A DNA stretch of 64,000 bases from an uncultured Bacteroidales bacterium (lineage in GTDB: Bacteria; Bacteroidota; Bacteroidia; Bacteroidales; CAYTAU01). The notes under the pieces were generated by a model. It saw only the letters and a program-made list of their open reading frames with translations, made no database searches and had not been told where the DNA came from. This document shows positions 2,841-59,130 of the stretch, one piece after another (positions within the stretch are counted from its first letter, which is position 1; the number at the start of each line of letters is the position of its first letter). The stretch spans positions 59,565-123,564 of the forward strand of contig CAYTWH010000002.1 of the NCBI GenBank assembly GCA_964442075.1, in the 5' to 3' direction. The position numbers were made by a program, and so were the translations under genes.

Positions 2841-2924
2841 AATTTTTTTTATTAATTAATATTTTATTTAAAAGGCATTTAATATGCTTATATTTTGACT
2901 TTGCTTAGCACAAGACTATTTATA

Positions 2925-3266
2925 TCAATCAATATTAATAGCTTTTACTTTCAGTTCTTTTCCTTGAAAAATATCATTTTTAAATATTCCGCATTTAGGA
3001 CAAGGAGTATAAAAGTCATTAATTATAAATTCGTGTGAGCAACCCTCACACTTCGCCCTAGCTTCAATTTTATTTACAACAAGCTTAGCATCTTTCAGCA
3101 ATGCACTTTTTGTGGCATGTTGCCATGCAAAATCTAAGGCATCAAAATCAATACCAGCCATTTCCCCGACATCCATCTCAACATCATGCACAATATTAGC
3201 ATTCAACTGTTTCAGCTTTTCTTCAACAATCTCAATAATATTTGTTATAATAGAAAATTCATGCAT
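2925..3266 (-). CDS. hypA: Hydrogenase nickel insertion protein HypA
   Basis: Canonical MHEFS N-terminus at the internal Met (ATG at 3266-3264), which I prefer over the track start at 3284. Zinc site CEGCSHEF...CPKCG. Confidence 0.9.
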   Translation of the reverse strand: MHEFSIITNIIEIVEEKLKQLNANIVHDVEMDVGEMAGIDFDALDFAWQHATKSALLKDAKLVVNKIEARAKCEGCSHEFIINDFYTPCPKCGIFKNDIFQGKELKVKAINID

Positions 3267-3277
3267 AGATATATATT

Positions 3278-5370: not shown

Positions 5371-5630
5371 TTTTTGTCTCCTTCTTCATCTTCTTTATCA
5401 ATTTTCTTTTCAATTTCTTCCAGTTCTTCTAATATTTTAAACGTTTCTCTTGCATCTTCTTCACTAATTTTTTGAATTGCAAAGCCTGTGTGTACAAGCA
5501 CATAATCACCTACTTTTATATCCATATCTTCAATCAGTTGAAGCGATACTTCACATTCAGTACCTCCAACAGAAGCAATTGCTTTATTTCCGTTTATCGA
5601 TTCGATTTTTGATGGAATACTTAAACACAT
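5367..5630 (-). CDS. hypC: Hydrogenase assembly chaperone HypC
   Basis: 87 aa starting MCLSIPSKI (essential Cys2). Overlaps hypD by 4 nt. Has an acidic C-terminal tail. Confidence 0.9.
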   Translation of the reverse strand: MCLSIPSKIESINGNKAIASVGGTECEVSLQLIEDMDIKVGDYVLVHTGFAIQKISEEDARETFKILEELEEIEKKIDKEDEEGDKK

Positions 5631-5643
5631 ATTATATACTTTT

Positions 5644-7908
5644 TTATGTTATTTCTCTGTTTATCTTTTTTGATGCTATCACAAGTTGTCCCAATGCTAT
5701 ACCTCCGTCATTTGTAGGTATTCTCTCATTTGAAAACACTTCAAAATTAGTATTAATTAATAGATTTTCTACATTTTCTAAAACATATTTATTTTGAAAT
5801 GTTCCTCCCGATAAAACTACTTTATTAATATTGTATTTTCTGCTTATTTGTTTAACAAGCTCAAAAACTACCGAAATAACTGTATTGTGAAATTTAGTTG
5901 CAATGATAGATTGTGAAATATTATTTTTAATATCATTCACTATTTCATTAATTGTATTTTTAAAAGATACTGTTGTATTAATTTCATAAGAATATTTATC
6001 TGAAACACTATAATCAATTATAGATTCTAATCGCATGGGTGCTTCTGCATGAAATTTTGAAATAGGGCAAATATTTATGAGAGCGGCAACAGCGTCAAAA
6101 AGTCTACCAGCACTTGAGGTAAGAGGGCTATTTATATTTTTATCGACAGCTTGTAATAATAATGCAATATTATTTTGATTTATATTTTTTAAAAATGGAA
6201 GCTCCAATTTTAAAAAATCATTATTATAATATTTATGAAGATATGAAACGGCCATTCTCCAAGGTTCTTTGGTTACTTTATCGCCACCAGGCATAGGAAT
6301 ATATTCAAAATGATTAATTCTTTCATAATTCTCAAAATCACAAATCATAAATTCACCACCCCAAATATTATTATCATCACCAAGACCTGTTCCATCAAAG
6401 CTTACACCAATAACTTTCTCATTTACATTATGTTCTGCCATACAAGATGCGATGTGTGCATGATGATGTTGCACTTGAACATGCTCAACACCAGACTCTT
6501 TAGCATATTTTGTAGAAAAATAATCTGGGTGAAGATCACTAACTATTAGTTTTGGTTTAAAGCGAAATGTTTTTTCAAAATGAGCTACTGTTTCACAGAA
6601 AAAATCATACGTTTCTGCATTTTTCAAGTCTCCAATATGCTGACTTAGAATTGCTTGTTTTCCTTTTCCAATACAAAAACAATTAACAAGTTCTGCTCCT
6701 GTTGCCAATATTCCTTCTACATTAAAATTCAAATTTATAGGAGAAGGGACATAAGATCGTGAACGTCTAATTATTCTTTCTTTATTATTAGTAACTGTAA
6801 CAACAGAATCGTCGGTTCTATTATATATATCACGATTATAGCTTAATACTGCATCTGTTATTTCTGAAAGCTTTTCAATAGCTGTATTATTATCTATCAC
6901 AATTGGTTCATCAGAAACATTTCCACTGGTAAGAACAATTGGATTTTTATATTTTTCAAATATCAGGTAGTGTATGGGCATATATGGAAGCATAGATCCA
7001 ATTGTGTCAAACCCCACGCTTATACTTTCTGACAATACCTTTTTTTGTTTTAAAACCACAATTGGTCTTTTCCACGATTTTATTATTTCTTCTTCCCTTG
7101 TTTCTATTTCAGCATAATGTTTTAATATTTCAATATTGGGAAACATAACTGCAAATGGCTTCCCTTCTCTGTTTTTTAATTGCCTAAGACGTTTTACAGC
7201 CTCATCATTTAGGGCATCACATGCTATAAAATACCCGCCAAGACCTTTTATAGCAACTATTTTCCCTTTGTTTAATAATCCTATTACATTAGAAATAATT
7301 ACGTCTATTCCCTTTATTATTTTATTGTCATTTTTATATAATGAATATTCTGGTCCACAATTATCACAGGCTATAGGTTGTGCATGAAAACGGCGGTCAA
7401 GAATATTTTCATATTCTTTTTTACAATCCTCACACATTATAAAATCTCTCATGGTTGTTTTTTCACGATCATAAGGAAGGTTTTCTATAATAGTAAAGCG
7501 AGGGCCACAGTTTGTGCAGTTAATAAATGGATAATTTATACGATTTTTTTGTTCTTTCATGTCAATCAAACATTCAGAACAAACAGCAATATCAGGACTT
7601 ATATCTGTGATTTCATCAGAAACACTTTCGCTTTTTACAATTTTGAAATCTGTAAAATTTTCTGTGTTTATATTTTTTGATGTTAAGCTTGTAATGTTTG
7701 ATGCTAGAGGTCGTTTTTCCTCAATAGATTTAATAAAATTCTGCAAACTTAGCTCGTCGCCTTCAGCTTGTATTTGAACTCCTTTGTTTGTATTTTCTAC
7801 CCAACCTTTTATATTATATTTTATTGCTATTTGATATATAAATGGACGAAATCCAACACCCTGAACAAGACCTTTAACCTCTATCTTATATGCATTAATT
7901 TTTAACAC
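5644..7908 (-). CDS. hypF: Carbamoyltransferase HypF
   Basis: 754 aa. Acylphosphatase-like N-terminus (VKGLVQGVGFRPFIY) and two zinc-finger pairs (CSECLIDM...CTNCGPRF; CEDCKKEY...CDNCGPEY), followed by YrdC-like and Kae1-like regions. Confidence 0.95.
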   Translation of the reverse strand: MLKINAYKIEVKGLVQGVGFRPFIYQIAIKYNIKGWVENTNKGVQIQAEGDELSLQNFIKSIEEKRPLASNITSLTSKNINTENFTDFKIVKSESVSDEITDISPDIAVCSECLIDMKEQKNRINYPFINCTNCGPRFTIIENLPYDREKTTMRDFIMCEDCKKEYENILDRRFHAQPIACDNCGPEYSLYKNDNKIIKGIDVIISNVIGLLNKGKIVAIKGLGGYFIACDALNDEAVKRLRQLKNREGKPFAVMFPNIEILKHYAEIETREEEIIKSWKRPIVVLKQKKVLSESISVGFDTIGSMLPYMPIHYLIFEKYKNPIVLTSGNVSDEPIVIDNNTAIEKLSEITDAVLSYNRDIYNRTDDSVVTVTNNKERIIRRSRSYVPSPINLNFNVEGILATGAELVNCFCIGKGKQAILSQHIGDLKNAETYDFFCETVAHFEKTFRFKPKLIVSDLHPDYFSTKYAKESGVEHVQVQHHHAHIASCMAEHNVNEKVIGVSFDGTGLGDDNNIWGGEFMICDFENYERINHFEYIPMPGGDKVTKEPWRMAVSYLHKYYNNDFLKLELPFLKNINQNNIALLLQAVDKNINSPLTSSAGRLFDAVAALINICPISKFHAEAPMRLESIIDYSVSDKYSYEINTTVSFKNTINEIVNDIKNNISQSIIATKFHNTVISVVFELVKQISRKYNINKVVLSGGTFQNKYVLENVENLLINTNFEVFSNERIPTNDGGIALGQLVIASKKINREIT

Positions 7909-7914
7909 CGCAAC

Positions 7915-8400
7915 TTATAATGACTCGTTTAATAAGTGTTCTAATTTATCTGGGACTAATAACTTCTCTTTTAAAAAATTTAATGCTTTGTTCAGGTTGG
8001 CAGCAGCTTTTTCTGTTAATATCTCCGCAAAATCCCATTCATATCCTTTTATGTGAATTAAATAAGTTTCTGGTGATTTCTTATAGATCTTTTCACAGAG
8101 ACTTAAAATATAAGCCGTAGACACAGCGTGCATTGAAAACTCTATTTTAGCATCAGAAGGGTTTACTTTGGTAATTACAAAGTCTTCAATATTTTCTTGT
8201 GATGCATCAATAAATATGACAATATCTTGTATTGATATTGCTTCAGCATCTTCAATGTTTAATTGATAATTACTATCTACTTGTATATTTTCAATTCCTT
8301 TATCATTTATCCAAGCTGTAATTTCATTAATGAAAACATTTCCTAATCCATCATCCATTCTGCCGGGATTTCCATATCCATATAATAAAATTTTTTTCAT
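7915..8400 (-). CDS. hoxW: Hydrogenase maturation endopeptidase (HoxW/HyaD family)
   Basis: 161 aa with the N-terminal motif LLYGYGNPGRMDDGLG. Lies directly downstream of the large subunit, which carries a cleavable C-terminal extension. Confidence 0.85.
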   Translation of the reverse strand: MKKILLYGYGNPGRMDDGLGNVFINEITAWINDKGIENIQVDSNYQLNIEDAEAISIQDIVIFIDASQENIEDFVITKVNPSDAKIEFSMHAVSTAYILSLCEKIYKKSPETYLIHIKGYEWDFAEILTEKAAANLNKALNFLKEKLLVPDKLEHLLNESL

Positions 8401-8411
8401 GCTACAAATTT

Positions 8412-8447
8412 ATAAAAAAAAAGAGTTCCAAATTAGAAACTCTTTTT
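8412..8447 (-). terminator. Candidate intra-operon hairpin between hoxH and hoxW
   Basis: AAAAAGAGTT (8418-8427) pairs with AACTCTTTTT (8438-8447). On the minus strand the stem is followed by a T-run. The stem is AT-rich and therefore weak. Confidence 0.4.
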
Positions 8448-8469
8448 ATAAAATATTTAAAGGAGATTT

Positions 8470-9930
8470 TTAAGACATTCTTTTGTCTATAACATTATTT
8501 TTTGAATCGACTAAAGTTATTTGAAGAGGCATTTTTCCTAAAGCATGAGTTGCACAACTTAAGCAAGGATCATATGCTCTAATAGCAACCTCACAAGCGT
8601 TCATCATAGGTTCAGTTATTTCTTTTTGTCCTGTCATCATTTTTTTAGCAACAAATTCCACAGATCTATTCATTGGTTCATTATTGTTTGTTGTTGAAAC
8701 AATTAAATTAGCCATTTCAATCTGATCTTTATCATTGATTCTATAATGATGGAATAAAGTACCACGTGGAGCTTCAATAATACCAACCCCTTCATTTCCT
8801 TTTGTTCCTTTAGTTACAAGATTATCGCCTTTCATAATGTCTGGATCATTAATAAGTTCTTTCATCATTTCAGCTGCATGTAATAATTCTATCAACCTTG
8901 CCCAATGCATATGCATACACATATTATTAGGTTTGCCATGAGTATAGGCTTTAAACTGCTCAAACTCTTTTTGTGCTAATGGCGAAGGAATAAAATCAAC
9001 AGTATTCATACGAGCAAGAGGTCCTACTCTATACCAACCTTTTTCTTTTCCAAGAGATTTTATATAAGGAAATTTCATGTAAGACCATGATTTTACTTCC
9101 TCTTCAATGTAATTATTATATTCCTGATTGCTAACGCCTTCAAATATTACATTACCATCAGAATCAACAGCTTTAAGGTCTCCATTATATAAGTCCATTG
9201 CACCGTCTTTTCTCACAATACTTAAGTGGTTTGATGGAAATTGAGCAAAATTATCGATAAAATCAGTATTTTTACCATGGAATCCTTTTAACAAATCAAC
9301 TGATGCTTGAGCCCATTCAATCATTTTATCTACATTTAAAGGATCTGCTCCTTTAAGAAATTCGTCTCTTTCTTCCAGACTTAAGCATTTATTAATTCCA
9401 CCAGGAATTGCACCGGTACCATGTATTTTTTTCCCTGCAGTAGCACGAATAATTTCTTGTCCAAATTTTCTCATCAATACTGCTTGAACAGCTAAATCAG
9501 TATATTCAGGAGTAATAACTAGTCCTATTACATTTCTGATAGCAGGATCAGCATCATAACCAAATAATAAATCAGGAGATGCTAAATGGAAAAAATGCAA
9601 AGCATGAGACTGAAATATTTGTCCATAATGCATTAATCTACGCATTTTATCTCCGGTAGGAGTTAATCCATCTCCTGTGCCTGCACCAACAATTACATCT
9701 AATGCTTTAGCTGCAGCTAAATGATGACTTACTGGACATATTCCACATAAACGTTGAACCAATACTGGAGCTTCCCAATAAGGACGACCTTGAACAAAAC
9801 GTTCAAATCCTCTAAATTCAACAATATGTAATCTGCTTTGTGTAACATTTCCGTCATCATCTAATTGAATTGTTACTTTTCCATGACCTTCGACCCTAGT
9901 TACAGGTTCTATCGTTATTTTTTGTGCCAT
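8470..9930 (-). CDS. hoxH: [NiFe]-hydrogenase large subunit, bidirectional NAD-coupled type (HoxH)
   Basis: 486 aa with RVEGHG, RLCGICPVSH (N-terminal Ni-Fe ligands) and DPCLSCATH (C-terminal ligands). A 24-aa extension (ALGKMPLQITLVDSKNNVIDKRMS) follows. Confidence 0.95.
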   Translation of the reverse strand: MAQKITIEPVTRVEGHGKVTIQLDDDGNVTQSRLHIVEFRGFERFVQGRPYWEAPVLVQRLCGICPVSHHLAAAKALDVIVGAGTGDGLTPTGDKMRRLMHYGQIFQSHALHFFHLASPDLLFGYDADPAIRNVIGLVITPEYTDLAVQAVLMRKFGQEIIRATAGKKIHGTGAIPGGINKCLSLEERDEFLKGADPLNVDKMIEWAQASVDLLKGFHGKNTDFIDNFAQFPSNHLSIVRKDGAMDLYNGDLKAVDSDGNVIFEGVSNQEYNNYIEEEVKSWSYMKFPYIKSLGKEKGWYRVGPLARMNTVDFIPSPLAQKEFEQFKAYTHGKPNNMCMHMHWARLIELLHAAEMMKELINDPDIMKGDNLVTKGTKGNEGVGIIEAPRGTLFHHYRINDKDQIEMANLIVSTTNNNEPMNRSVEFVAKKMMTGQKEITEPMMNACEVAIRAYDPCLSCATHALGKMPLQITLVDSKNNVIDKRMS

Positions 9931-9946
9931 TGTCTCTAGTTTTTAA

Positions 9947-10495
9947 TTAATCAAATTTAATAACTTCATAAGGTAAGTCCATTTCGTTACCTGTTAATAA
10001 TGCAACAAGTGCATTCCAAATAAGGTCTGCTGTAGGAGGACATCCCGGCAAATAATAATCTATTTTTACAATTTCATGACAAGGATAAACTCTATCAAGA
10101 AGCATTGGTAATTCATCATCATTAGGCATAATCTTTTCTGTATTTAATTGCACAGTTGGACCATTTAGATATGCTTCTTCCAAACATTCTTTAATAGGAA
10201 TTCCATTTCTTAATGCAGGTAATCCGCCCATTATAGCACATTCACCTAAAGAAATTAGAATTTTACAATTTTTTCTGAAGTCTTTAAGTACTTCTATGTT
10301 TTCGTGGTTACAACATCCTCCTTCAATAATACCAATATCACATTGTTTTGTGAATTTTTTGATATCATCAATAGGCGATTTATTAAATTCAACAAGTTCA
10401 ATAAGTTTTAATATTCTATCATCAATATCCAGAATAGACATGTGACAGCCAAAACATCCAGCTAGTGAAGTTGTTGCTACGATTGGTTTACTCAT
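9947..10495 (-). CDS. hoxY: [NiFe]-hydrogenase small subunit (HoxY)
   Basis: 182 aa, the short group-3 type. Contains LAGCFGCHMS, GGCCNHEN and YYLPGCPP, with no twin-arginine signal. Confidence 0.9.
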   Translation of the reverse strand: MSKPIVATTSLAGCFGCHMSILDIDDRILKLIELVEFNKSPIDDIKKFTKQCDIGIIEGGCCNHENIEVLKDFRKNCKILISLGECAIMGGLPALRNGIPIKECLEEAYLNGPTVQLNTEKIMPNDDELPMLLDRVYPCHEIVKIDYYLPGCPPTADLIWNALVALLTGNEMDLPYEVIKFD

Positions 10496-10515
10496 TCTAT
10501 TTACCTCCTTAATTT

Positions 10516-11322
10516 TTATTGTAAAACATTTTCAATATCACTACCAATTGGTTTTCTATCATATTTTTTAGTACCAATTGCTTCATCAAAGCCTTTTTCT
10601 TTTCTAATAATTGCACCAACAGGGCAAATGTCCATTGCTTCTTGTGCTTGCGCATCAGTCATTTTAGCCGCAAGAAGATGATCGATAGCAATATCAAGAT
10701 GCTCTCCTCTTTTAATAAATGCAAATACATTTTTATTTTCAATTTTTATTGAACGTATGCAGCGTTTGCATTGTATGCAACGATTTTTTTCCATGTAGAT
10801 CTTTGGAGAAGTTGCATCAACTTCTTTTAATGGGAATGAATAAGGAAAGCGTGGTACCATCATTTGGAATTTGTAACCTAATGCTTGCAATTCGCAATTT
10901 CCACTTTTTTCACATGAAGGGCAGAAATGATTTCCTTCAACAAACAATGCTTCGACAATGATTTTTCTCATTTCATTCATTTCCGAAGTATCATTTTCAA
11001 TTTTCATTCCATTTTCAATAGGAGTAGTACAGGCTGCCATGTTTCTACCGTTTACCTTACACGTACATACTCTACATGAACCGGCTGCTTTTAATCCTTT
11101 AATATGGCAAAGTGTTGGAATATAAACTCCATTTTCAGCAGCAGCATCAACAAGTAGTTGACCTGGGGCAGCAGAACATTCTTTGCCATCAATTACAAAA
11201 TTCACTTTATTATTCATATTAGTTTCTTTTTGTGTTTCTTTTATTTCTTGTTTTTCGTTAACAACAGGCTCCTTCTTAGATTCTGTTGCATCTTTTTTGC
11301 CGAAAAGTCCAAATAAACTCAT
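10516..11322 (-). CDS. hoxU: Diaphorase iron-sulfur subunit (HoxU, NuoG N-terminal-like)
   Basis: 2Fe-2S motif CHIKGLKAAGSCRVCTCKV, His/Cys cluster EGNHFCPSCEKSGNCELQ, and 4Fe-4S motifs CIQCKRCIRS and CPVGA. The first 35 aa are a K/E-rich extension, so the real start could be the Met of MNNKVNF (near 11217). Confidence 0.85.
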   Translation of the reverse strand: MSLFGLFGKKDATESKKEPVVNEKQEIKETQKETNMNNKVNFVIDGKECSAAPGQLLVDAAAENGVYIPTLCHIKGLKAAGSCRVCTCKVNGRNMAACTTPIENGMKIENDTSEMNEMRKIIVEALFVEGNHFCPSCEKSGNCELQALGYKFQMMVPRFPYSFPLKEVDATSPKIYMEKNRCIQCKRCIRSIKIENKNVFAFIKRGEHLDIAIDHLLAAKMTDAQAQEAMDICPVGAIIRKEKGFDEAIGTKKYDRKPIGSDIENVLQ

Positions 11323-11339
11323 GATAAATTAAATTTAAA

Positions 11340-13097
11340 TTAATGTAAAATTGGTTTTCTTCCAACAGCATCACATGATGCTTGAACAGAAGCAGCCAAA
11401 TCAAAATTACTTATATAGTCAATATCTTGTACAATAGCTTCGTATTTATCGCGGAAGTTAGTAATAGTACTGATAATAGGATTCGCAGAAGTTTGACCTA
11501 AACCACAACGAGTTGTTGCTGTCATAACTTTCCCCCATTCAAGTAAATCATCAATATCAGATTTAATACCTTTTCCTTCTGTAATTTTAGCTAATTTATT
11601 TCTCATTATTGCGTTAAGATTGCGACATGGAGCACAAGACCCACATGACTCATCAGCAAAGAAATTCATAAAATTAAGAACAACATCTTTTAACAAGTTT
11701 CTTTGGTTACCAATAATTATCATTGAACCACCTGTTGCAAGATCTTCAAAAGCAATTTTTCTTTCGAATTGTGATGGATTTAAGCATACTCCTGACGGAC
11801 CTGCAACTTGAACTGCTTGTACATCATTTGCTCCAACCATTTCTATCATTTCTTTAATAGTCATTCCCCATTCAACTTCATAAACACCGGGTTTATCACA
11901 ATCACCTGAAATACTTAATAATTTTGTCCCTGATGATTCTTTTGTTCCTATTTCATTATACCAAGCTGCTCCTTTTTCCATTATTTTAACAACAGATGCA
12001 AATGTTTCAACATTATTTACAGTTGTTGGTTTGTCCATATAACCTTTTTGTGCAGGAAAAGGCGGTTTATTTCTTGGCTCACCCCTTTTACCTTCCATTG
12101 ATTCAATTAATGCTGTTTCTTCTCCACAAATATAAGCACCTTGTCCTAATTGAATTCTAATATTAAAATTACCAAGATTTGGTTTAATTGTTTCAATTAC
12201 ATTATTTAAATATGATGTTAAATAATCATATTCTCCTCTAAGATAAAGAATACCTTCTTTTGCTCCAATTGCATGTCCACAAACTGCCATTCCTTCAAAA
12301 ACTCTTTCAGCATATTCTGTAAGAATAACTCTATCTTTAAAAGTACCCGGTTCTCCTTCATCTGCATTACAGATAACATATTTTTCTAAACCTTCAGCAT
12401 TAGCAGTAAATTCCCATTTCATTCCTGTAGGAAAACCTGCACCTCCTCTTCCTTTTATATTAGAAGCTTTAACTTCTGAAATAACTTCGGAAGGTTGCAT
12501 TAATTTAGATTTTGTAATAGCTGTTCCAATTTCATAGGGTGCAAACAATACTTTACCTTCATTCATAATATTGTTTTTTACCATAGATTTGATTTGAGCA
12601 TTAACACCATCTCCATACTCAGTAATCATATCTTCAACAGCTTTTCCTACTTTCATTCCTTGGATAAGTTCTTTTACTTTTACAGGTGTTAAATTTGTAA
12701 ATACTTTACCATTAATGATGGCTGCCGGCTCTTGATCACTCATTCCAATACATGCAGTATTATGAAGACCTATAATTCCATCTTCAGATATTTCCCCAAA
12801 TTTACATCCAGCTTCTTCTTCCATTGCTTTTGCAACATCTGCACGACCCATCATGTTTGCTACAACACTATCATTTAGATAAATAACATATTTCCCTGCA
12901 GGTTTATCTGTAAGGAAATGGTAAAATGATCTTGTTTGTTCCACATCAACTCCTGAAAGATTAAGTTGTTCTGCAATAATTTCAATTGCTTCTTTACTAA
13001 TAAAGCCAAGCTCATCTTGAACTTTACTTAAAATATCAACTAATCTATTTTGGTCTTTATTGAACTCATCTACGGTGCGTTGTATCTTTGTTCTCAT
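11340..13097 (-). CDS. hoxF: Diaphorase NAD(H)/FMN subunit (HoxF, NuoE-like plus NuoF-like fusion)
   Basis: 585 aa. NuoF-type motifs GRGGAGFPTGMKWEF and ESCGSCAPCR. The N-terminal ~150 aa are NuoE-like but lack most Cys ligands. Confidence 0.9.
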   Translation of the reverse strand: MRTKIQRTVDEFNKDQNRLVDILSKVQDELGFISKEAIEIIAEQLNLSGVDVEQTRSFYHFLTDKPAGKYVIYLNDSVVANMMGRADVAKAMEEEAGCKFGEISEDGIIGLHNTACIGMSDQEPAAIINGKVFTNLTPVKVKELIQGMKVGKAVEDMITEYGDGVNAQIKSMVKNNIMNEGKVLFAPYEIGTAITKSKLMQPSEVISEVKASNIKGRGGAGFPTGMKWEFTANAEGLEKYVICNADEGEPGTFKDRVILTEYAERVFEGMAVCGHAIGAKEGILYLRGEYDYLTSYLNNVIETIKPNLGNFNIRIQLGQGAYICGEETALIESMEGKRGEPRNKPPFPAQKGYMDKPTTVNNVETFASVVKIMEKGAAWYNEIGTKESSGTKLLSISGDCDKPGVYEVEWGMTIKEMIEMVGANDVQAVQVAGPSGVCLNPSQFERKIAFEDLATGGSMIIIGNQRNLLKDVVLNFMNFFADESCGSCAPCRNLNAIMRNKLAKITEGKGIKSDIDDLLEWGKVMTATTRCGLGQTSANPIISTITNFRDKYEAIVQDIDYISNFDLAASVQASCDAVGRKPILH

Positions 13098-50040: not shown

Positions 50041-50043
50041 GAG

Positions 50044-50117
50044 CGGTCTGGACGGGACTCGAACCCGCGACCTCCGGCGTGACAGGCCGGCATTCTAACC
50101 AACTGAACTACCAAACC
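50044..50117 (-). tRNA. tRNA-Asp (anticodon GTC)
   Basis: The reverse complement reads GGTTTGGTAGTTCAGTTGGTTAGAATGCCGGCCTGTCACGCCGGAGGTCGCGGGTTCGAGTCCCGTCCAGACCG. It has a 7-bp acceptor stem, anticodon stem CCGGC/GCCGG with loop CTGTCAC, and a GTTCGAGTC T-loop. No CCA is encoded. Confidence 0.9.
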
Positions 50118-51872: not shown

Positions 51873-53072
51873 ATGCCACAAATATCTAAAAAAGGCAAGT
51901 TAATGCCTCAATCACCAATCAGAAAGCTTGTTCCTTATGCTGAAGCAGCGAGAAGAAAGGGTAGAAAAATTTATCCTTTAAATATCGGGCAACCAGATAT
52001 TGATACACCAGAAGTAGCTCTAAATGCTGTTAAAAACATGAGCAAAACAGTTATTGAGTACAGCCATTCTGCAGGTAATCAGTCGTACAGAGAGAAGCTT
52101 GCAAAATATTATCAAAATATTGATATTGACGTTAGTGCAGACGAGATGCTTATTACAACAGGTGGTTCTGAAGCTATTATTTTTGCTTTTATGACTTGCT
52201 TGAACCCCGGTGAAGAAATAATTGTGCCGGAACCGTTTTACGCTAATTACAATGGCTTTGCAACAATAGCAGGAGTAGTTGTAAAACCCCTTACTTCATC
52301 AATTGAAAATGATTTTGCATTACCTCCAATTGAAGAAATTGAAAAACTTATTACTCCCAAAACAAAAGGAATTGTTATTTGCAACCCAAATAATCCTACA
52401 GGATATTTATATTCTGAAGAAGAATTAAAAGCTCTAGCTACATTGGTTAAAAAATATGATTTATATTTATTTTCCGATGAGGTATATCGTGAGTTTTGTT
52501 ATGATGGCGAAAATCATTTTTCTGCTATGTACCTTGAAGGATTAGAAAATAATGTAATTTTATTGGATTCTGTTTCAAAACGATACAGTATGTGTGGTGC
52601 GCGTATTGGAGTATTGGTAACAAAAAATAAAGAAGTAATTGCAAATGCACTAAAATTTGCACAAGCCCGATTATGTCCGCCATCATTTGGGCAAGTTGCT
52701 GCTGAAGCCGCTCTTGACACTCCAAGTGAATATTTCACAGAGGTTTATAATGAATACCTTGAAAGGCGAAATTTTATGGTAGCAGAGCTAAATAAAATAG
52801 AAGGCGTTTACAGTCCATTGCCTAAGGGTGCATTTTATACTGTTGTTAAGCTTCCTGTTGATGATGCCGACAAATTTGCACAATGGATACTCGAAGAATT
52901 TGAATATAATAACCAAACCGTAATGATTGCTCCGGCATCAGGGTTTTATGCAAGTCCGGGACTTGGTAAAAACGAAGCTCGCATTGCTTATGTTCTTAAA
53001 AAAGAAGATTTGGCAAATGCAATGGAAACTTTAAACGAAGCATTAAAAGTTTATCCGGGAAGAACTATTTAA
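51873..53072 (+). CDS. Class I pyridoxal-phosphate aminotransferase (aspartate aminotransferase-like)
   Basis: 399 aa with SPIRKL, NIGQPD, NPNNPTG, and SVSKRYSMCGARIG carrying the PLP lysine. Confidence 0.85.
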   Translation: MPQISKKGKLMPQSPIRKLVPYAEAARRKGRKIYPLNIGQPDIDTPEVALNAVKNMSKTVIEYSHSAGNQSYREKLAKYYQNIDIDVSADEMLITTGGSEAIIFAFMTCLNPGEEIIVPEPFYANYNGFATIAGVVVKPLTSSIENDFALPPIEEIEKLITPKTKGIVICNPNNPTGYLYSEEELKALATLVKKYDLYLFSDEVYREFCYDGENHFSAMYLEGLENNVILLDSVSKRYSMCGARIGVLVTKNKEVIANALKFAQARLCPPSFGQVAAEAALDTPSEYFTEVYNEYLERRNFMVAELNKIEGVYSPLPKGAFYTVVKLPVDDADKFAQWILEEFEYNNQTVMIAPASGFYASPGLGKNEARIAYVLKKEDLANAMETLNEALKVYPGRTI

Positions 53073-53169
53073 TTTTAAACAGATTATATTAATGGTTCAT
53101 CTATTGATGTAAATCTCAGTTTATTTTTAAAAAGTTTATGTAGATTTGACAGCTTAAAAGAATAGAAAT

Positions 53170-55131
53170 ATGACAAAAATTGACCCCGTCCAAAATTACG
53201 AACATACCAAAAAAGAGATTGGGTATGTTCCTCGAAAACAAGCAACACAGAAAGATTATGACCATATTGGATTCATGTCAGGCCTTGAAGTTCACCAACA
53301 ACTTTTAACAAAACGAAAGCTTTTTTGCAGATGTCCTGCCGGAATTTTTCAAAGTGATGAAGGTTATAATGCCGAAGTAATACGCCATATGAGGCCAACA
53401 CTTAGTGAATTGGGAGAATATGACGGAACGGCATTAATGGAATTTAAAACCAGAAAAGAAATTATTTACAGACTGAATAATGAAACAGCATGTACTTATG
53501 AAGTAGATGATACTCCACCTTTTCCAATTGATAAGGTAGCACTTGAAATAGCCCTTAAAATTTCAATTCTTAGTAAATTAAATATTGTTGGAGAAGTTCA
53601 TATAACAAGAAAACAATATCTTGACGGCAGTATTCCAACAGGTTTTCAAAGAACAGCAATTTTGGGTGTTGAAGGTGAAATTAAATTAAAAAACAAAACC
53701 GTAAGACTTATTCAATTAAGTATTGAAGAAGATTCTTGTCGTGAAATATCCGACATAAAACATGTCAGAGTTTACAAAACAGACAGACTAGGAATGCCAT
53801 TAATCGAAACTGTTACTTATCCTGACATGGTAAATCCTGAAGAGGTAATGGAGGCATGTGATTATATCCGGTTTTTAAATAGGAGTACGGGAAAAGTCAG
53901 AACAGGAATTGGTGCAGGAAGACAAGATGTGAATGTAAGCTGTAAAGGTGGAAGTCGTGTTGAAATAAAAGGAGTTGCACACACAAAATGGATACCTGAA
54001 CTTACACATAACGAATGTTACAGACAATGGGCATTGCTTGCTGTAAGGAAAAAATTATTAAAAAGAATAAAAAATCCCGATAATTGGAAAATTGAACATG
54101 CAAATTTGGATTGGGATGCTTTTCAAATTACTTATGAGCCCTTAAAAATAGCTAAAGATAATGGGGAAAAACTGTATGCTGTAAATCTTCCAAATTTCAA
54201 AGGTATTCTTTCTCACTTTACACAGCCCGGAAAAATGTTTTCAAACGAAATTTCCGACAGATTAAAAGTAATTGCCTGTCTTGAAAAACCCAACATGCTT
54301 CATACAGAGCAATATGAGAAAATAATTAATAAAGCCGACCTGGAAATTATTAGTTCAATTGTTAATGCGGGCGAAAACGATGCACAAATTATTTTCTGGG
54401 GACCTGAAGAAGATATTAAAACGGCATTAGAAACTATTGAAGAAAGATGCCAAATGGCTTTTGAGGGAATTCCTGAAGAAACACGAAAATCATTTGAGAA
54501 CGGAACAACAATTTTTGAAAGAGTGCTTCCCGGAGCCGACAGAATGTATCCTGATACAGACAGCCCGCCTATTCCTCTTGAAAATGACTATATTGATAAA
54601 TTAGGAGAAAACCTTCCGGTTGACATAATTGACAGATACAAACAATTAAAAAACTGGGATATTCCTGAAGATACTTACAAATATATTTTAAGTAAAAATC
54701 TGGTGCCGCTTATTGAAAAAATCATCAATGATTTTGCTTACAATCCAAAATATATTGGAACTTTCATAGGACACAAACTAAAATATGTTGAAGGTCATTA
54801 TGTTTCTCCTGCAAAATTTGATTATGACCTTGTTTATGATCTATTCAAATTTGTTAAAGACAGTAAACTGGAAATTGAAATTGCAAAAGAAATGATCTCA
54901 GAATTATACGAACATCCACAAATGGATTTCGAATCAATTCTTGCAACTATTAAATATAAAAAGAAATCTAAAAAAGAAATTCTTGAACCTGTTGGCTTGC
55001 TTAAAAAGAAGTTTAAGAAAAACGGGGAAAGACAGACTCCTGATTCAATAAATGATTGGATTATGGGCGAGTTGCGCAAGCAAGCAATCGGGAATTGTAA
55101 TTTAACAGAACTTAAAAATTTAATATCTTAG
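53170..55131 (+). CDS. gatE: Glu-tRNA(Gln) amidotransferase subunit E-like (archaeal GatE type)
   Basis: 653 aa with GFMSGLEVHQQLLTKRKLFCRC, MRPTLSELGEYDGTALME, DGSIPTGFQRTAILG, DRLGMPLIETVTYPDM, GAGRQDVNVS, RVEIKGV. Its length and its pairing with a GatD-type gene argue for GatE rather than GatB. Confidence 0.8.
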   Translation: MTKIDPVQNYEHTKKEIGYVPRKQATQKDYDHIGFMSGLEVHQQLLTKRKLFCRCPAGIFQSDEGYNAEVIRHMRPTLSELGEYDGTALMEFKTRKEIIYRLNNETACTYEVDDTPPFPIDKVALEIALKISILSKLNIVGEVHITRKQYLDGSIPTGFQRTAILGVEGEIKLKNKTVRLIQLSIEEDSCREISDIKHVRVYKTDRLGMPLIETVTYPDMVNPEEVMEACDYIRFLNRSTGKVRTGIGAGRQDVNVSCKGGSRVEIKGVAHTKWIPELTHNECYRQWALLAVRKKLLKRIKNPDNWKIEHANLDWDAFQITYEPLKIAKDNGEKLYAVNLPNFKGILSHFTQPGKMFSNEISDRLKVIACLEKPNMLHTEQYEKIINKADLEIISSIVNAGENDAQIIFWGPEEDIKTALETIEERCQMAFEGIPEETRKSFENGTTIFERVLPGADRMYPDTDSPPIPLENDYIDKLGENLPVDIIDRYKQLKNWDIPEDTYKYILSKNLVPLIEKIINDFAYNPKYIGTFIGHKLKYVEGHYVSPAKFDYDLVYDLFKFVKDSKLEIEIAKEMISELYEHPQMDFESILATIKYKKKSKKEILEPVGLLKKKFKKNGERQTPDSINDWIMGELRKQAIGNCNLTELKNLIS

Positions 55132-55188
55132 ATATAATATCTAGAATATAAAATTGTAAATTGTAAATCGTAAATCTAAAATAGAAAA

Positions 55189-56574
55189 ATGGACAAAGAT
55201 ATTTTTCAAGGATATAAAGATGAAGCTCTTGAAATATTGAAAAAATATAATGCAAGAGTTTGGGGAAAAGTTGAAATAGAATCAACAAGAGGAAGATTTG
55301 ACGGCACTATTCTGCCGCGTGCCGAAAATGATGACGACCAGCATATTGTTCTTAAAATAATTACAGGCTACAATATTGGTGTAGATATCAAAACAATAAC
55401 TTCGATGGTAGAAGTTGATTACAAAAAAGCTAATTACCAGATACCTGAAAAAGAATTTCCATTTACAAAAGGATTGCCTGCCGTAAAACTTTTTGGAACA
55501 GGGGGAACCATTGCATCACGGCTCGATTACAGAACAGGTGCTGTTATTCCTGCTTTCTCACCAGGCGAACTTTATGGAGCAGTGCCAGAATTAGCAGACA
55601 TTTGCAACCTTGATACCGAAAAAGTTTTTGCTGTTTTTAGTGAGAATATGGGACCAATGCAATATATGTCGCTGGCAAAAGCAATAAAAAAAGAAATTGA
55701 AAACGGTATTGACGGAATAGTAATTGGTCATGGAACTGATACTTTACATCATTCAGGTGCAGCTTTAACATTTATGGTGCAAAATTCTCCGGTACCAATA
55801 GTTTTGGTAGGTTCACAACGTTCATCAGACAGACCAAGTTCCGATGCCGCTCTGAATCTTATGCACGCAATGCACACAGCAGGACATTCTGATATTGCAG
55901 AAGTTATGGTTTGCATGTTTGGACCTACTTCCGATGAGTACGGGCTTTTGCATAAAGGAACCAGAGTTAGAAAAATGCACTCATCATATCGTTCAACATT
56001 CAGAACAATTGGAGATATTCCATTAGCAATGGTTGATAGAAAAAAGATAACACCAATTCATAAAGAATATAAAAGAAGACGAAAAGATAAAAATGTTGAT
56101 ATTTATCCTTATTTCAGCGATAAAGTTACAATGTTATATTATTATCCAGGAATGAATCCAGACATACTGAATTCTATAATTGATAATGGTTACAAGGGAA
56201 TTATATGGGTTGGTACAGGATTAGGTCACGTTAATAAAGAATTGTATCCGGCAATTGAACGTGCTCACGCAAAAGGAATTCACATGTTTATGACCTTACA
56301 AACAATTTGGGGATATGTTCACATGTTTGTTTACGATACAGGGCGTGATATGATGGCAAGAGGAATTATCCCTGCCGGCAATATGTTGCCAGAAGTTGCG
56401 TACATTAAACTTGGTTGGGTACTTGGACAAACAGACGATGCCAAAAAAGTTAAGGAAATGATGCTTACGCCAATTAACGATGAAATAACCGAACGCGAAC
56501 CTTACAATGGATATTTAGTCTATCAAGGCGGTGTACCCGAAGTTGAAGACTTTATTAGAAATGTGCATAAGTAA
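55189..56574 (+). CDS. gatD: Glu-tRNA(Gln) amidotransferase subunit D-like (archaeal GatD type)
   Basis: 461 aa. GatD-specific N-domain (VWGKVEIESTRGRFDGTILPRAENDDDQHIVLKIITGYNIGVDI), then an asparaginase core (LFGTGGTIASRLDYRTGAV, VIGHGTDTLHHS). Confidence 0.85.
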   Translation: MDKDIFQGYKDEALEILKKYNARVWGKVEIESTRGRFDGTILPRAENDDDQHIVLKIITGYNIGVDIKTITSMVEVDYKKANYQIPEKEFPFTKGLPAVKLFGTGGTIASRLDYRTGAVIPAFSPGELYGAVPELADICNLDTEKVFAVFSENMGPMQYMSLAKAIKKEIENGIDGIVIGHGTDTLHHSGAALTFMVQNSPVPIVLVGSQRSSDRPSSDAALNLMHAMHTAGHSDIAEVMVCMFGPTSDEYGLLHKGTRVRKMHSSYRSTFRTIGDIPLAMVDRKKITPIHKEYKRRRKDKNVDIYPYFSDKVTMLYYYPGMNPDILNSIIDNGYKGIIWVGTGLGHVNKELYPAIERAHAKGIHMFMTLQTIWGYVHMFVYDTGRDMMARGIIPAGNMLPEVAYIKLGWVLGQTDDAKKVKEMMLTPINDEITEREPYNGYLVYQGGVPEVEDFIRNVHK

Positions 56575-56629
56575 AGAAGTCAAGTAGACCGAAGAATCTT
56601 TCACAATTTTATATATACACTTTCGTGAG

Positions 56630-57110
56630 ATAAGGCAACAAATGCCCCGCACAAGACAATCAGATACGTAAATAAGGCAATGATGAACCATTATAAGCAA
56701 ATGATGAGCCCTCACGGGCAAATTATGGAACCCAACGGACAAATGATGGAAGCAAACGGGCAAATGAATTCCAATTATAAGGCAATGAAGGGCTCCGACA
56801 AGGCACTAAAGGACGTAATCACACTGCTTCGGATGCCTAATACCTCAACCCTAGTGCCCGGTGTCTCGTTTCGGGAGCCTAATGTCTCAACGAGGGTCGT
56901 TAATAACTCAATAGTATTGCATAATAGCTAAATAATCTTACACGGTGGCTCATTAAACTTACACGATGCCCAATCAATCTTGCACGGTGCCCAATTAAAA
57001 TTGTACAATAGATAAACAATAAGGCAATATAACTTAATAAATTGGCGTTATAAGTAAATAAGTGGCATAATAACATGATTTTTGTCGCATAATATATTAC
57101 CCTTGTAGAA
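56630..57110. repeat. Array of about 23 degenerate tandem units with a strict ~21-nt phase
   Basis: Core motifs recur every 20-22 nt. First set: 56634, 56655, 56676, 56696, 56717, 56738, 56759, 56781, 56802 (GGCAA/GACAA/GGCAC). Second set: 56844, 56865, 56886, 56907 (CTCAA/TCTCG). Third set: 56937, 56958, 56979, 57000 (CTTACACGG-like). Fourth set: 57023, 57044, 57064, 57085 (GGCAA/GGCGT/GGCAT/TCGCA). Confidence 0.75.
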
Positions 57111-57129
57111 ACATTAAATATTAAAAACT

Positions 57130-57633
57130 ATGGATAGACCAGAAGAAACAAAGAAAACGGAAAAGATATCAATGAATGACTTAAAAACATTTCTTGATAA
57201 GAAGTTTGCACCAGACCCATTGGCAATAAAACCCAATAAAATGTCAAATAATGAAATGGAAAATTTCTTTAAAACGGAAATAATCCCGGTATATAAAAAA
57301 CTTATGAAACAACTCTCTGCCTATAAATTCGAAAGTGTAAAAATTGATGTATACAGGCGGGTTGCAACACTAAGAATTGCCGATAAACTTTCACTCTTTC
57401 ATTTCAAAGTGGATATTGATAATAGCTCCCGACAATTCAATATTTTATATGACGTAAGTTATCGCATTGCAAAAAAGAAAAAACTTAAACAAATACTAAA
57501 AAGTGATAATGTTAGAATATCATTTCGCGATATAGACACAATAAACGAAGACATGATAATATCTCATTTCTTAAAATGGTATATGAATAAAGACGAAGAG
57601 ATATTAAATGATAAAGAGAGAAATGTAGAATAA
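57130..57633 (+). CDS. Hypothetical protein (167 aa)
   Basis: A clean ORF starting 20 nt after the phased array and followed by a terminator-like hairpin. Lys/Glu-rich, no recognisable motif. Confidence 0.5.
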   Translation: MDRPEETKKTEKISMNDLKTFLDKKFAPDPLAIKPNKMSNNEMENFFKTEIIPVYKKLMKQLSAYKFESVKIDVYRRVATLRIADKLSLFHFKVDIDNSSRQFNILYDVSYRIAKKKKLKQILKSDNVRISFRDIDTINEDMIISHFLKWYMNKDEEILNDKERNVE

Positions 57634-57678
57634 AGTTAAAAATATTTTGTAGTTTTTGCGTGAAAAAAATTTAAAATT

Positions 57679-57705
57679 AAAAGGGGAGTTTTCTCCTTTT
57701 TTTTA
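57679..57705 (+). terminator. Candidate rho-independent terminator
   Basis: AAAAGGGGAG TTTT CTCCTTTTTTTT: GGAG/CTCC core with G-T and A-T extensions and a T-run. Confidence 0.5.
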
Positions 57706-57739
57706 TCTTTGATGAATTATAATAGAAATTGTGTTGTTA

Positions 57740-58551
57740 ATGAATATTGAGCAACTAATAAATGAATTTAAAAATTGTGATTTATCAGAAATCGCACACC
57801 ACAAAATAATTAGAACAATTATAAATAATAATATTCAAATTCCAATAATTGTAGCAACTGTAAAAGAAGGAACAATTATTGAACGAGGTAGAATATCTGA
57901 TGAAGGAAAAATATATAATTCTGAATTTAAGATAAGTTATAATACCGCAATAGGTAAGATACTTAAATATGGACGTGCAAATAAACCCTTTCAATCTATG
58001 TTTTATGGTGCAATGATTTCAAAAAAAATTACACCTGTGCGAACACTATTTGCAGAATTAGTAGAACAATTTCGAAAAATACCAAACAATGACTTCACCA
58101 CAACTATGACAGTTGGACGTTGGATTGTAACTAAAGAATTTGAAATTGCAGATGTATGCTTTAGTAAAATCATCCTAGTACAAATAAAAACACGAAAGAA
58201 TACAAATTATTTGAGGAGTTTCCAGAGCAAGCTCGAAATTTATTATTATTTTTTACTGATGTATTCTCGAAAAAAAATATTGTCAATCACTTTGATTATA
58301 AAGTTAGTTCTGTATACACTGACCTTGTATTAAATGAAAAGTTGGAGGGTATTTACTATCCAAGTGTTCGAACTGAATACAAGGGTAAAAATATTGCCTT
58401 AACACCCTTTGCTGTAGAAAAATATTTAAAGTTAGAAAAAGTTGCTGTATTTAAGTATACGGTAAAAAACGGTCAACCAATGGCAAAACAAACTCATTAT
58501 TCAGATTCTTTTGGAAATTTTAACTCACAATTTAATTGGAAAGAGTATTAA
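57740..58551 (+). pseudogene. RES-domain protein gene interrupted by a frameshift
   Basis: Track ORFs 57731..58333 and 58342..58551 are one gene. The first carries YGRANKPFQSMFYGA (Arg) and LFAELVEQ (Glu). The frame of the second is open from 58168 and carries EGIYYPSVRTEYKGKNIAL (Ser). The frames differ by one nt, with the switch between about 58165 and 58195 (A-runs). Confidence 0.65.
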
Positions 58552-58599
58552 TAAATGATGACAGGAGTTTATAAAAAAAGAACAAACAATGTTTAAAAA

Positions 58600-59130
58600 A
58601 TGATAAAAGAAAAAGCAGATTTTCATAGTATTTTTTTAAAAGAAGGAGATATATTATATACGAATATTTATTCATTAGACAAAGACAAATTTAATAATTG
58701 GGTTGTAAATAATTTTGAAAAAGTAAAAACAATAGCCTCTTATGAAGAAGTTATACCAACCAAAGAAACAATGAACAAAATAATTAAAAAAGGATACGAC
58801 CATAGATCATCTCAATGTCATTATTCCTCAAAAGCTGTGAGTTTAATAGATGAATCTTTTGAATATTGGACAGGATTTGTACACCAACAAGACTTTTTAT
58901 TTAATATCATTACACATAGTTTTAATATATTAGATGGAATACTGGTTGATTTCTCAAAAATTAATGAGAAGTGTGAAATTATTGATAAAGGTAAAGAAGG
59001 TTTTCCTCGTACATATTATGGTATAAAAATTCCAACAGGATTTATAAGAAAATTTGAATATGAAACCTTAAATAATCATTCAATGAAACCTCATCTATTT
59101 GAATGGTACAAAGAAATGAAATCCCACTAA
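58600..59130 (+). CDS. Hypothetical protein with a possible Cys-His-Asp (papain/transglutaminase-like) arrangement
   Basis: 176 aa. SSQCHYSSKAVSLIDE...YWTGFVH...IITHSFNILDGILVDFS resembles a minimal Cys...His...Asp core. This is weak. Confidence 0.45.
   Translation: MIKEKADFHSIFLKEGDILYTNIYSLDKDKFNNWVVNNFEKVKTIASYEEVIPTKETMNKIIKKGYDHRSSQCHYSSKAVSLIDESFEYWTGFVHQQDFLFNIITHSFNILDGILVDFSKINEKCEIIDKGKEGFPRTYYGIKIPTGFIRKFEYETLNNHSMKPHLFEWYKEMKSH

Follow-up and report, generated by a model that had tools for sequence, protein, structure and literature searches.

The window analyzed here is a 64,000-nucleotide (nt) stretch of a contig from an uncultured Bacteroidales bacterium, and coordinates below are window positions unless they are given for another locus. 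It contains two neighboring genes on the plus strand, encoding proteins of 653 and 461 amino acids (aa), which the original prediction, made from the sequence alone, had taken for the two subunits of the amidotransferase GatDE. Both open reading frames (ORFs) were found exactly where they had been placed, and the strings quoted for the second protein were also found: HIVLKIITGYNIGVDI (aa 52-67), GTGGTIAS (aa 103-110) and (G)HGTDT (aa 180-185). Profile searches and structure alignments upheld the assignment as true GatE and GatD, with all checked catalytic motifs intact. The features of the locus are listed in Table 1.

Table 1. Coordinates of gatE, gatD and features in and around the two genes.
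Feature	Position	Strand	Remarks
gatE	53170..55131	+	653 aa, ATG start; predicted kinase/amidotransferase subunit with cradle, GatE-specific insertion, helical and tail domains
GatE N-terminal extension, about 27 aa, NYxxTKKxxGYVxRKEATQxxY	53170..53250	+	conserved in Bacteroidales; none in aligned archaeal GatE
GLEVHQQ, aa 38-44	53281..53301	+	aligns to archaeal GLEIHQQ/GLEIHRQ; kept in 70/70 Bacteroidales GatE
EEDSCR, aa 186-191	53725..53742	+	aligns to archaeal EEDAAR; kept in 70/70 Bacteroidales GatE
KVRTG, aa 242-246	53893..53907	+	short loop of GatE type where GatB has its 3-10 turn, by alignment
GatE-specific insertion domain, about aa 297-456	54058..54537	+	absent from GatB; archaeal GatE aligns continuously through it
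GatE helical and YqeY-like tail region, aa 515-653, ending ...WIMGELRKQAIGN...	54712..55128	+	NF003107 alignment to residue 650
gatE-gatD spacer, 57 nt	55132..55188	+	TAnnTTTG absent on the plus strand
gatD	55189..56574	+	461 aa, ATG start; predicted glutaminase (ammonia-generating) subunit
GatD_N domain, aa 26-70, includes HIVLKIITGYNIGVDI	55264..55398	+	Pfam PF18195, 45.4 bits (cut-off 25.7)
GTGGTIAS, aa 103-110	55495..55518	+	first catalytic Thr motif; kept in 120/120 Bacteroidales and 117/118 Planctomycetota-type GatD
HGTDT, aa 181-185	55729..55743	+	second catalytic Thr-Asp motif; kept in 120/120 Bacteroidales and 118/118 Planctomycetota-type GatD
RVRKMH, aa 259-264	55963..55980	+	conserved Lys; aligns to archaeal KVRKMH; kept in 120/120 and 117/118
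GatD C-terminal extension, about 18 aa (…GYLVYQGGVPEVEDFIRNVHK)	56518..56571	+	reaches past the ends of archaeal proteins
Class I/II aminotransferase ORF	51873-53072		97-nt gap before gatE
TAGATTTG, TAnnTTTG, candidate Bacteroidota -7 promoter element	53141..53148	+	22 nt upstream of the gatE ATG
Two 21-nt-period arrays, 3.4 and 3.0 copies	56697-56767, 56934-56995		78-80% matches
37-nt direct repeat pair	57646 and 59200		81% identity

The product of the first gene was recognized by two GatE equivalog models, NF003107 (478.6 bits; cut-off, 456) and TIGR00134 (411 bits; cut-off, 319.6), and its residues 28-587 aligned with the archaeal structures 1zq1_C (E = 9e-86) and 2d6f_C (E = 1.5e-85). Among the GatB equivalog models, whose cut-offs span 315-680 bits, the best reached 118.4 bits against its cut-off of 338, and the GatB matches covered aa 120-296 and resumed at aa 434-457; the chains of GatB structures matched about aa 117-301 and 457-633. 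The product of the second gene passed the GatD equivalog models NF003217 (500.7 bits; cut-off, 310) and TIGR02153 (498.6 bits; cut-off, 324), and residues 9-443 aligned with the solved structures 2d6f_A (E = 2.6e-112) and 1zq1_A (E = 1.5e-111). The same comparison gave E = 1e-36 for the best structure of a plain asparaginase. Pfam found GatD_N ahead of both asparaginase domains, in a region that aligns with the N-domains of 2d6f_A and 1zq1_A, and the asparaginase-fold core follows at aa 99-425.

These results also bear on the possibility that the pair is an ordinary GatB and a type I asparaginase, mislabeled through shared domains. GatE does carry a GatB_N domain, and GatD also passed the model of the type I asparaginase subfamily, TIGR00519 (369.7 bits; cut-off, 260.5). 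However, the GatB models remained far under their cut-offs, the insertion domain was present, and a loop of GatE length replaced the 3-10 turn of GatB. On the GatD side, GatD_N was present and the GatD models outscored the asparaginase models, as did the structures. Real asparaginases of Bacteroides were about 30% identical to GatD and matched it only from residue ~97 on. Profile scores, structure alignments, insertion domain and loop length exclude the mislabeling, to which we assign practically no weight. Both ORFs are genuine GatE and GatD, and the family assignment is far beyond chance.

The two proteins were also compared with known systems. The two proteins share with archaeal GatDE (Methanothermobacter thermautotrophicus 2D6F and Pyrococcus abyssi 1ZQ1) the domain order in both subunits, the catalytic motifs and an alignment over nearly the full length; the gatE-gatD gene order is shared with a contig of Sigynarchaeota. 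They differ from archaeal GatDE in the bacterial host, in sequence (46% identity for GatD, 35% to Asgard GatE), in the extensions at the GatE N-terminus and the GatD C-terminus, in KVRTG and in a divergent GatE tail. With bacterial GatCAB (GatB structures 3IP4, 3H0L and 3AL0), GatE has in common the cradle domain and apparently a YqeY-like tail, and GatDE would share ATP-dependent activation followed by amidation of tRNA-bound Glu/Asp. In contrast to GatCAB, GatDE has no GatA or GatC partner and would take its ammonia from the asparaginase-type GatD, and GatE contains the insertion domain, has a loop shorter by two residues and falls below the cut-offs of the GatB hidden Markov models. The GatD core resembles type I L-asparaginases (Pyrococcus; E. 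coli AnsA-type) in fold and catalytic motifs, whereas the stand-alone enzyme is a single module of about 330 aa and GatD adds GatD_N and has gatE next door.

The cradle motifs shared with GatB (GLEVHQQ, DGSxPxGFQRT, EEDSCR, RQDVNVS, RVEIKGV and RMYPDTD) were present in GatE, and each was kept in 67-70 of the 70 Bacteroidales GatE sequences. An IMGELR-type motif was present in the tail and occurred in 56/70. The loop region aligned without gaps to P. abyssi GatE, while GatB of Aquifex aeolicus and Thermus thermophilus is two residues longer there. KVRTG occurred in 48/70 Bacteroidales GatE and also in two bacterial loci described below, L081 and the Phycisphaerales locus L088. At this place, KVKRG is read in both archaeal structures, whereas the bacterial fusion protein of locus L082 and the Asgard sequence share KVRRG. 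A C-terminal extension similar to that of GatD was also found in the L082 protein.

Reviews from 2009 to 2022 describe GatDE as exclusively archaeal and as an "archaeal signature protein" (including PMC2811023 and PMC9499178), in agreement with what the original prediction had said of it. This restriction does not apply to the present genes: the context of the window is bacterial, a transfer-messenger RNA (tmRNA) gene lies beside gatE in L081, and the pair occurs on closed bacterial chromosomes. Because the archaeal restriction is a statement about distribution and not a structural feature, a bacterial host is no argument against membership in GatD and GatE.

The window has a GC content of about 30%, which is Bacteroidota-type, and encodes a SusC-like TonB-dependent receptor with a CarboxypepD_reg domain, type IX secretion system cargo proteins with Por_Secre_tail domains, DUF1573, MgtE and iPGM. 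The bacterial surroundings that had been claimed for the pair were therefore seen in the TonB receptor and secretion cargo, and also in DUF1573 and MgtE. The promoter motif counted among them, TAnnTTTG, was present but not enriched, with 118 copies observed in the window against 122 expected. Because of this lack of enrichment, a promoter role of TAGATTTG upstream of gatE is only suggestive. The presence of TAGATTTG, combined with a spacer free of TAnnTTTG, agrees with a two-gene operon under a promoter of its own, and gatE and gatD are probably co-transcribed. Elsewhere in the window, a [NiFe]-hydrogenase cluster was found at 2052-13097, with HypB/E/D/F, HoxU and a fused HoxE/F-like diaphorase. 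The top model for its large subunit was the archaeal VhuA (402 bits, far under the cut-off of 800); the hydrogenase is of group-3 type, in a Bacteroidota genome.

A search of a large protein database with GatD gave more than 8,000 matches. The 120 top matches, which were inspected, were 83-100% identical and nearly all 461 aa long, and the named entries among them were called GatD and came from metagenome-assembled genomes (MAGs) of Bacteroidales, Bacteroidia or Bacteroidetes. One GatD match was from Bacteroidetes bacterium GWF2_38_335; the GWF2 groundwater MAG set was reportedly published in 2016. When one genome of each GTDB species was scanned, at least 583 GatD matches were confirmed, and the best 80 of these loci were analyzed. 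GatD in these 80 loci was 77-85% identical to that of the window. Nearly all were MAGs of Bacteroidales, Lentimicrobiaceae, Salinivirgaceae or Marinilabiliales, and the closed chromosome OY787449.1 (Bacteroidales, 4.10 Mb) was among them. The names of several MAGs suggest an origin in anaerobic digesters or sediments. Three loci labeled otherwise, L010 and L024 (Chlorobiota) and L017 (Acidobacteriota), carry a GatD that has 83-85% identity with the window protein and groups within the Bacteroidales clade, and their taxonomic labels or binning are probably wrong.

In 71 of the 80 loci gatE lay directly upstream of gatD, as it did in five further loci, L081 and L087 to L090, and the junction was tight and in the same order in L087, L088 and L089. 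This adjacency would fit a complex of the two proteins. Most of the nine loci without adjacent gatE end at a contig edge. Bacteroidales gatD without an adjoining gatE was seen in L049 (8033-9962) and L073 (upstream of 6420); in L049, the place directly upstream of gatD is taken by a restriction-modification pair, which consists of a DNA methylase and a restriction endonuclease of MjaI type.

No other gene accompanied the pair in this way. When 1,275 ORFs of the 80 loci were clustered, no conserved functional neighbor was found beyond housekeeping genes, each in at most 14 loci; the recurrent ones, judged by sequence features, were a cell-wall amidase, MlaD-like and OstA/LptD-like proteins, an EEP nuclease, a ClC channel and a carboxyltransferase. 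The tested neighbors from the window, other than gatE and gatD, did not recur past the closest relatives. The aminotransferase does precede the pair at the predicted distance, but conservation of the aminotransferase-gatE-gatD synteny, which had been suggested as a check, did not hold: the aminotransferase gene adjoins gatE in one relative alone, the closest one (L090), and three other loci have it 2.8-3 kb upstream. Because the adjacency is restricted in this way, a functional link is unlikely, and the aminotransferase was rejected as a pathway partner. In L090, a bacterial-type aspartyl-tRNA synthetase gene with anticodon-binding, class II core and GAD domains (4362-6119) lies just upstream of the DUF1573-aminotransferase-gatE-gatD block; the matching region of the window contains a DUF481 ORF and a tRNA-Asp gene (50043-50117).

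The pair was also found outside Bacteroidota. Among 430 GatD-like representatives at the 50%-identity level (E < 1e-30), the nearest non-fragment ones were a 448-aa GatD (53% identical; L081) and a 943-aa GatE-GatD fusion (L082). L081 is a 233-kb metagenomic contig of 67.6% GC, which is bacterial because it carries a tmRNA gene, a lipopolysaccharide heptosyltransferase and a NarL-type two-component system. Its tmRNA gene (7554-7903; tag ANTQFAMAA) is directly upstream of gatE, and its GatE, of 622 aa, seemingly has no C-terminal tail. In L082 (9301-12132), the GatE cradle and insertion (about aa 1-480) are joined to a full GatD, and the helical and tail domains are absent; this contig has 65% GC and a bacterial-looking context (Ser/Thr kinase-TPR, PIN-TRAM and MFS proteins). 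A divergent GatD-like lineage with no Pfam match for GatD_N was found in L083 (502-3829), L084 (421-3748) and L085 (2614-9599). In all three contigs an AsnA-family gene (PF03590) follows the GatD-like gene. The GatE-like protein of L085 has no GLExH motif, and two genes lie between it and gatD. This lineage may have been neofunctionalized in connection with asparagine synthesis.

With the 448-aa GatD of L081 as the query, a second large GatD clade was uncovered in Planctomycetota (Phycisphaerae/Phycisphaerales), with one match labeled Gemmatimonas. GatD of this clade is mostly 460-480 aa long and shares about 65% identity with that of the window; its contigs are as long as 5.67 Mb, and it is encoded in the same gatE-gatD operon. 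A closed 5.67-Mb chromosome of Phycisphaerales (CP070744.1) carries gatE-gatD, and UCE58937.1 is one of the public annotations on it. Other closed or near-closed genomes that bear GatDE are GCA_054038915.1 and a 5.25-Mb contig that encodes UCC28809.1. Apart from the operon and GatD (461-480 aa), the likeness to the window genes includes GatE (45-51% identical), KVRTG (in L088) and membership in one bacterial group of the tree. The Planctomycetota pair differs in belonging to another phylum with high-GC genomes and in a GatE tail of the RG[RK]xDG type, as in Asgard.

We then considered whether the genes in the window were imported recently as an island, or are an artefact of assembly or binning, an archaeal fragment within or wrongly joined to a bacterial contig, with the repeats downstream of gatD marking its edge. 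The original prediction had described a phased repeat array and a repeat-flanked cassette there and had read them as a possible edge of an acquired segment. Both exist, but they are weak (78-80% and 81%). Of all 1-kb bins of the window, the one that holds the spacer after gatD (56575-57129) has the highest GC (0.381). Tested as a structured RNA, this spacer gave no Rfam match and no excess of folding energy (fold z = +1.0). Besides the two 21-nt arrays, it contains an 83-aa ORF (56680-56931), the N-terminal part of which has a repeat with a period of about 7 aa (for example, QIMEPNG / QMMEANG). Farther downstream, at 57130-59130, are three orphan ORFs of 167, 200 and 176 aa (GC 0.25-0.29), which had no Pfam match and no homologue in the 80 related loci. 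The 37-nt direct repeat, which resembles a duplicated promoter region, flanks the second and third of them, and the whole may be a small inserted cassette. In L090, gatE-gatD is followed by an alpha-2-macroglobulin gene, and the repeats and orphan ORFs are absent. Because L090 keeps gatE-gatD without the repeats, the variable and possibly inserted DNA is the cassette and not the gene pair. The repeat array was rejected both as a structured RNA and as an island boundary, given the lack of an Rfam or fold signal and its absence from L090.

Composition had been suggested as a further check for a foreign segment, and it proved to be close to local. GC was 0.335 in gatE and 0.369 in gatD, against a mean of 0.302 (standard deviation, 0.031) for the ORFs of the window; at third codon positions (GC3) the values were 0.228 and 0.252, against 0.194 (standard deviation, 0.030). 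Both genes are slightly above the mean, and the GC3 of both lies inside the range of the other ORFs. In favor of an island, gatD has the highest GC among the window ORFs and a somewhat high codon-usage distance, and synteny breaks directly downstream of it, where the weak repeats are located.

The divergence of the genes argued in the other direction. In 12-14 species that share flanking synteny, identity went down to 48-51% in the neighbors, and was 86% for GatD and 65% for GatE. GatD divergence was correlated with that of the syntenic neighbors (Spearman 0.51-0.82), with p-values that are overstated because species pairs are not independent. GatD is about 82% identical across the clade, above the carboxyltransferase of the same genomes. 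The proportion of nonsynonymous relative to synonymous differences (pN/pS) was 0.16 for gatD (pN 0.13) and 0.30 for gatE (pN 0.24), and synonymous sites were saturated in both genes (pS about 0.83-0.85). Co-divergence with the neighbors, saturated pS and low pN indicate an old, vertically inherited pair under strong constraint and no recent island.

Further evidence against an island or artefact came from the conservation of the operon in 71/80 loci with unrelated flanks, from the closed chromosomes OY787449.1 and CP070744.1, from the tmRNA gene beside gatE in L081 and from the distance to the nearest archaeal GatD, which is only 46% identical. A plasmid vector was not indicated either, since PLSDB contained no GatD and only ordinary asparaginases. 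Taking operon conservation, composition, co-divergence with neighboring housekeeping genes and L090 together, we regard the island or artefact as refuted and see scarcely any chance that it is correct. In Bacteroidales, gatE-gatD is old, vertically inherited and under strongly purifying selection, and a recent import is not supported.

The deeper origin of the operon was examined with neighbor-joining (NJ) trees of GatD, with bootstraps of 50 or 60 replicates. The Bacteroidales clade was supported in 50/50 and 60/60 replicates and the group of all bacterial sequences in 48/50 and 60/60; the order of branching among the bacterial lineages was poorly supported. The named sequences opposite the bacterial group were all archaeal (Sigynarchaeota, Bathyarchaeia, Nitrososphaerota, Thermococcus, Thermoplasmatota and Desulfurococcaceae). 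When the tree was rooted with four plain asparaginases, bacterial GatD was nested in a paraphyletic archaeal GatD, beside a small branch containing Sigynarchaeota. The outgroup was monophyletic in 18 of 50 replicates; among these 18, archaeal monophyly was never recovered, and the bacteria were nested in 16. Identities were in the same direction: the closest named archaeal GatD is 46% identical to that of the window, and the window GatE is 41-51% identical to other bacterial GatE and 35% to Asgard GatE. The gatE-gatD order recurs in a contig of Sigynarchaeota (Asgard), L087. The most economical reading is that the operon passed from archaea to bacteria long ago and later spread between bacterial phyla. 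The trees are NJ only, with a distant outgroup, which counts against this reading, so that the evidence for it is moderate and not proof. As to direction, the donor was probably archaeal, and the nearest sampled branch is Asgard-type.

We consider it likely that the gatE-gatD operon encodes a genuine heterodimeric GatDE, whose activity would most likely be the ATP-dependent amidation of Glu-tRNA(Gln). In favor of this function are the intact active sites of both subunits, the tightly spaced operon and the retention of the insertion and tail regions. By analogy with archaeal GatDE, in which GatD releases ammonia and GatE amidates Glu (PMC9499178, PMC2811023), GatD would hydrolyze glutamine (or asparagine) at the asparaginase-type Thr/Thr-Asp/Lys site and release ammonia, which would pass to GatE. 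GatE would use ATP to phosphorylate the side-chain carboxyl of Glu on tRNA(Gln) and would then amidate the activated Glu to give Gln-tRNA(Gln). The enzyme might supply Gln-tRNA(Gln) where glutaminyl-tRNA synthetase (GlnRS) is missing, or it might work alongside GlnRS. Both the substrate and the in vivo role of the bacterial enzyme are thus assigned by analogy.

Bacterial tRNA(Gln) normally has a U1-A72 pair. Archaeal GatDE, on the other hand, reads the A1-U72 pair of archaeal tRNA(Gln), and a short, positively charged loop of GatE lies beside this pair; at the corresponding place, bacterial GatB reads U1-A72 with a 3-10 turn (PMC2811023). The pathway as defined in archaea also goes with a non-discriminating GluRS and the absence of GlnRS from the host. 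Neither the window nor the 90 genomic loci (L001-L090) yielded a tRNA-Gln gene.

Several observations weigh against the proposed function in Glu-tRNA(Gln) amidation. With the KVRTG loop facing a bacterial U1-A72 pair, substrate recognition must have changed, or the substrate may differ. The cut-off of NF003107 was cleared only narrowly by GatE. The tail, a domain that binds the tRNA D-loop, is divergent: the Pfam domain GatB_Yqey scored 20.2 bits, under its cut-off of 27, and the terminal motif is LRxxAxGN in Bacteroidales, versus the RG[RK]xDG type in Planctomycetota and Asgard. Related bacterial lineages have lost parts, namely the tail in L081, the helical and tail domains in the L082 fusion and GLExH in L085, and the GatDE family can therefore drift in function. 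Signatures of GlnRS, GluRS, GatA and GatB were absent from the parts of genomes examined, the window and 86 loci (1.38 Mb), but GlnRS or GatCAB may still be present in these genomes and GatDE dispensable. Finally, no activity data for a bacterial GatDE were found in the literature.

Some of these observations would fit a repurposed amidotransferase that acts on another substrate, such as Asp-tRNA(Asn), another aminoacyl-tRNA or a non-tRNA carboxylate, while GlnRS makes Gln-tRNA(Gln). Cultured Bacteroidales have glnS and asnS and no gatCAB, and Cytophaga-type Bacteroidota have gatCAB and no glnS (2014 survey). GlnRS in the former would make a Glu-tRNA(Gln) amidotransferase redundant. The altered loop at the 1-72 pair, the changed tail motif and the clade-specific N-terminal extension, as well as domain loss, fusion and AsnA linkage in sister bacterial lineages, are also in line with repurposing. 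However, the catalytic motifs, insertion domain and tail domain have been kept and are nearly invariant over hundreds of species, both proteins pass equivalog models trained on archaeal GatD and GatE, and the 80 loci offered no conserved neighbor that points to another pathway. The high identity of GatD across the clade, above that of the carboxyltransferase, fits a translation-linked role. On balance we think repurposing unlikely and prefer Glu-tRNA(Gln) amidation. The KVRTG loop, the N-terminal extension and the divergent tail are, from their sequences, candidate adaptations to bacterial tRNA.

Because cultured Bacteroidales are reported with GlnRS and without GatCAB, GatDE is probably the sole amidotransferase in the genomes studied here. 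A bolder proposal, which we offer tentatively and at less than even confidence, is that GatDE is the only route to Gln-tRNA(Gln) in many uncultured Bacteroidales and, in parallel, in Phycisphaerae, where it would have displaced GlnRS and GatCAB and would have been re-tuned to bacterial tRNA(Gln) by the KVRTG loop, the N-terminal extension and the altered tail. For Phycisphaera mikurensis, a cultured species, gatCAB and glnS but no asnS are listed, a pathway background that differs from that of Bacteroidales.

Full-text literature searches, which did not cover subscription-only papers, found no published description of a bacterial GatDE. Public annotation pipelines, however, have for years named bacterial MAG copies GatD, in many records. 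Because automated annotation already labels them so, the gap is one of literature and experiments and not of detection. The novelty claimed for the pair, which would have been lost if orthologues in this clade were widespread, vertically inherited and already described, is accordingly reduced: the orthologues are widespread and vertically inherited, and they are annotated as GatD, but no paper describing them was found. We concluded that bacterial GatDE is real, widespread and under-reported, and that its biochemistry appears ordinary as far as can be told from sequence.

GatDE has served in reviews as an archaea-specific component of translation and as evidence in scenarios for the entry of glutamine into the genetic code. 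This archaeal exclusivity no longer holds, since the operon is very common in two bacterial phyla, where it is old and strongly conserved. The finding also raises the question of how the bacterial version chooses its substrate, given that archaeal GatDE reads A1-U72. In Bacteroidota, GatDE may be a third solution for making Gln-tRNA(Gln), besides GlnRS and GatCAB. If it is indeed the sole route in these bacteria, GatDE would no longer be an archaeal signature, and the scenarios for its origin would need to be revisited.

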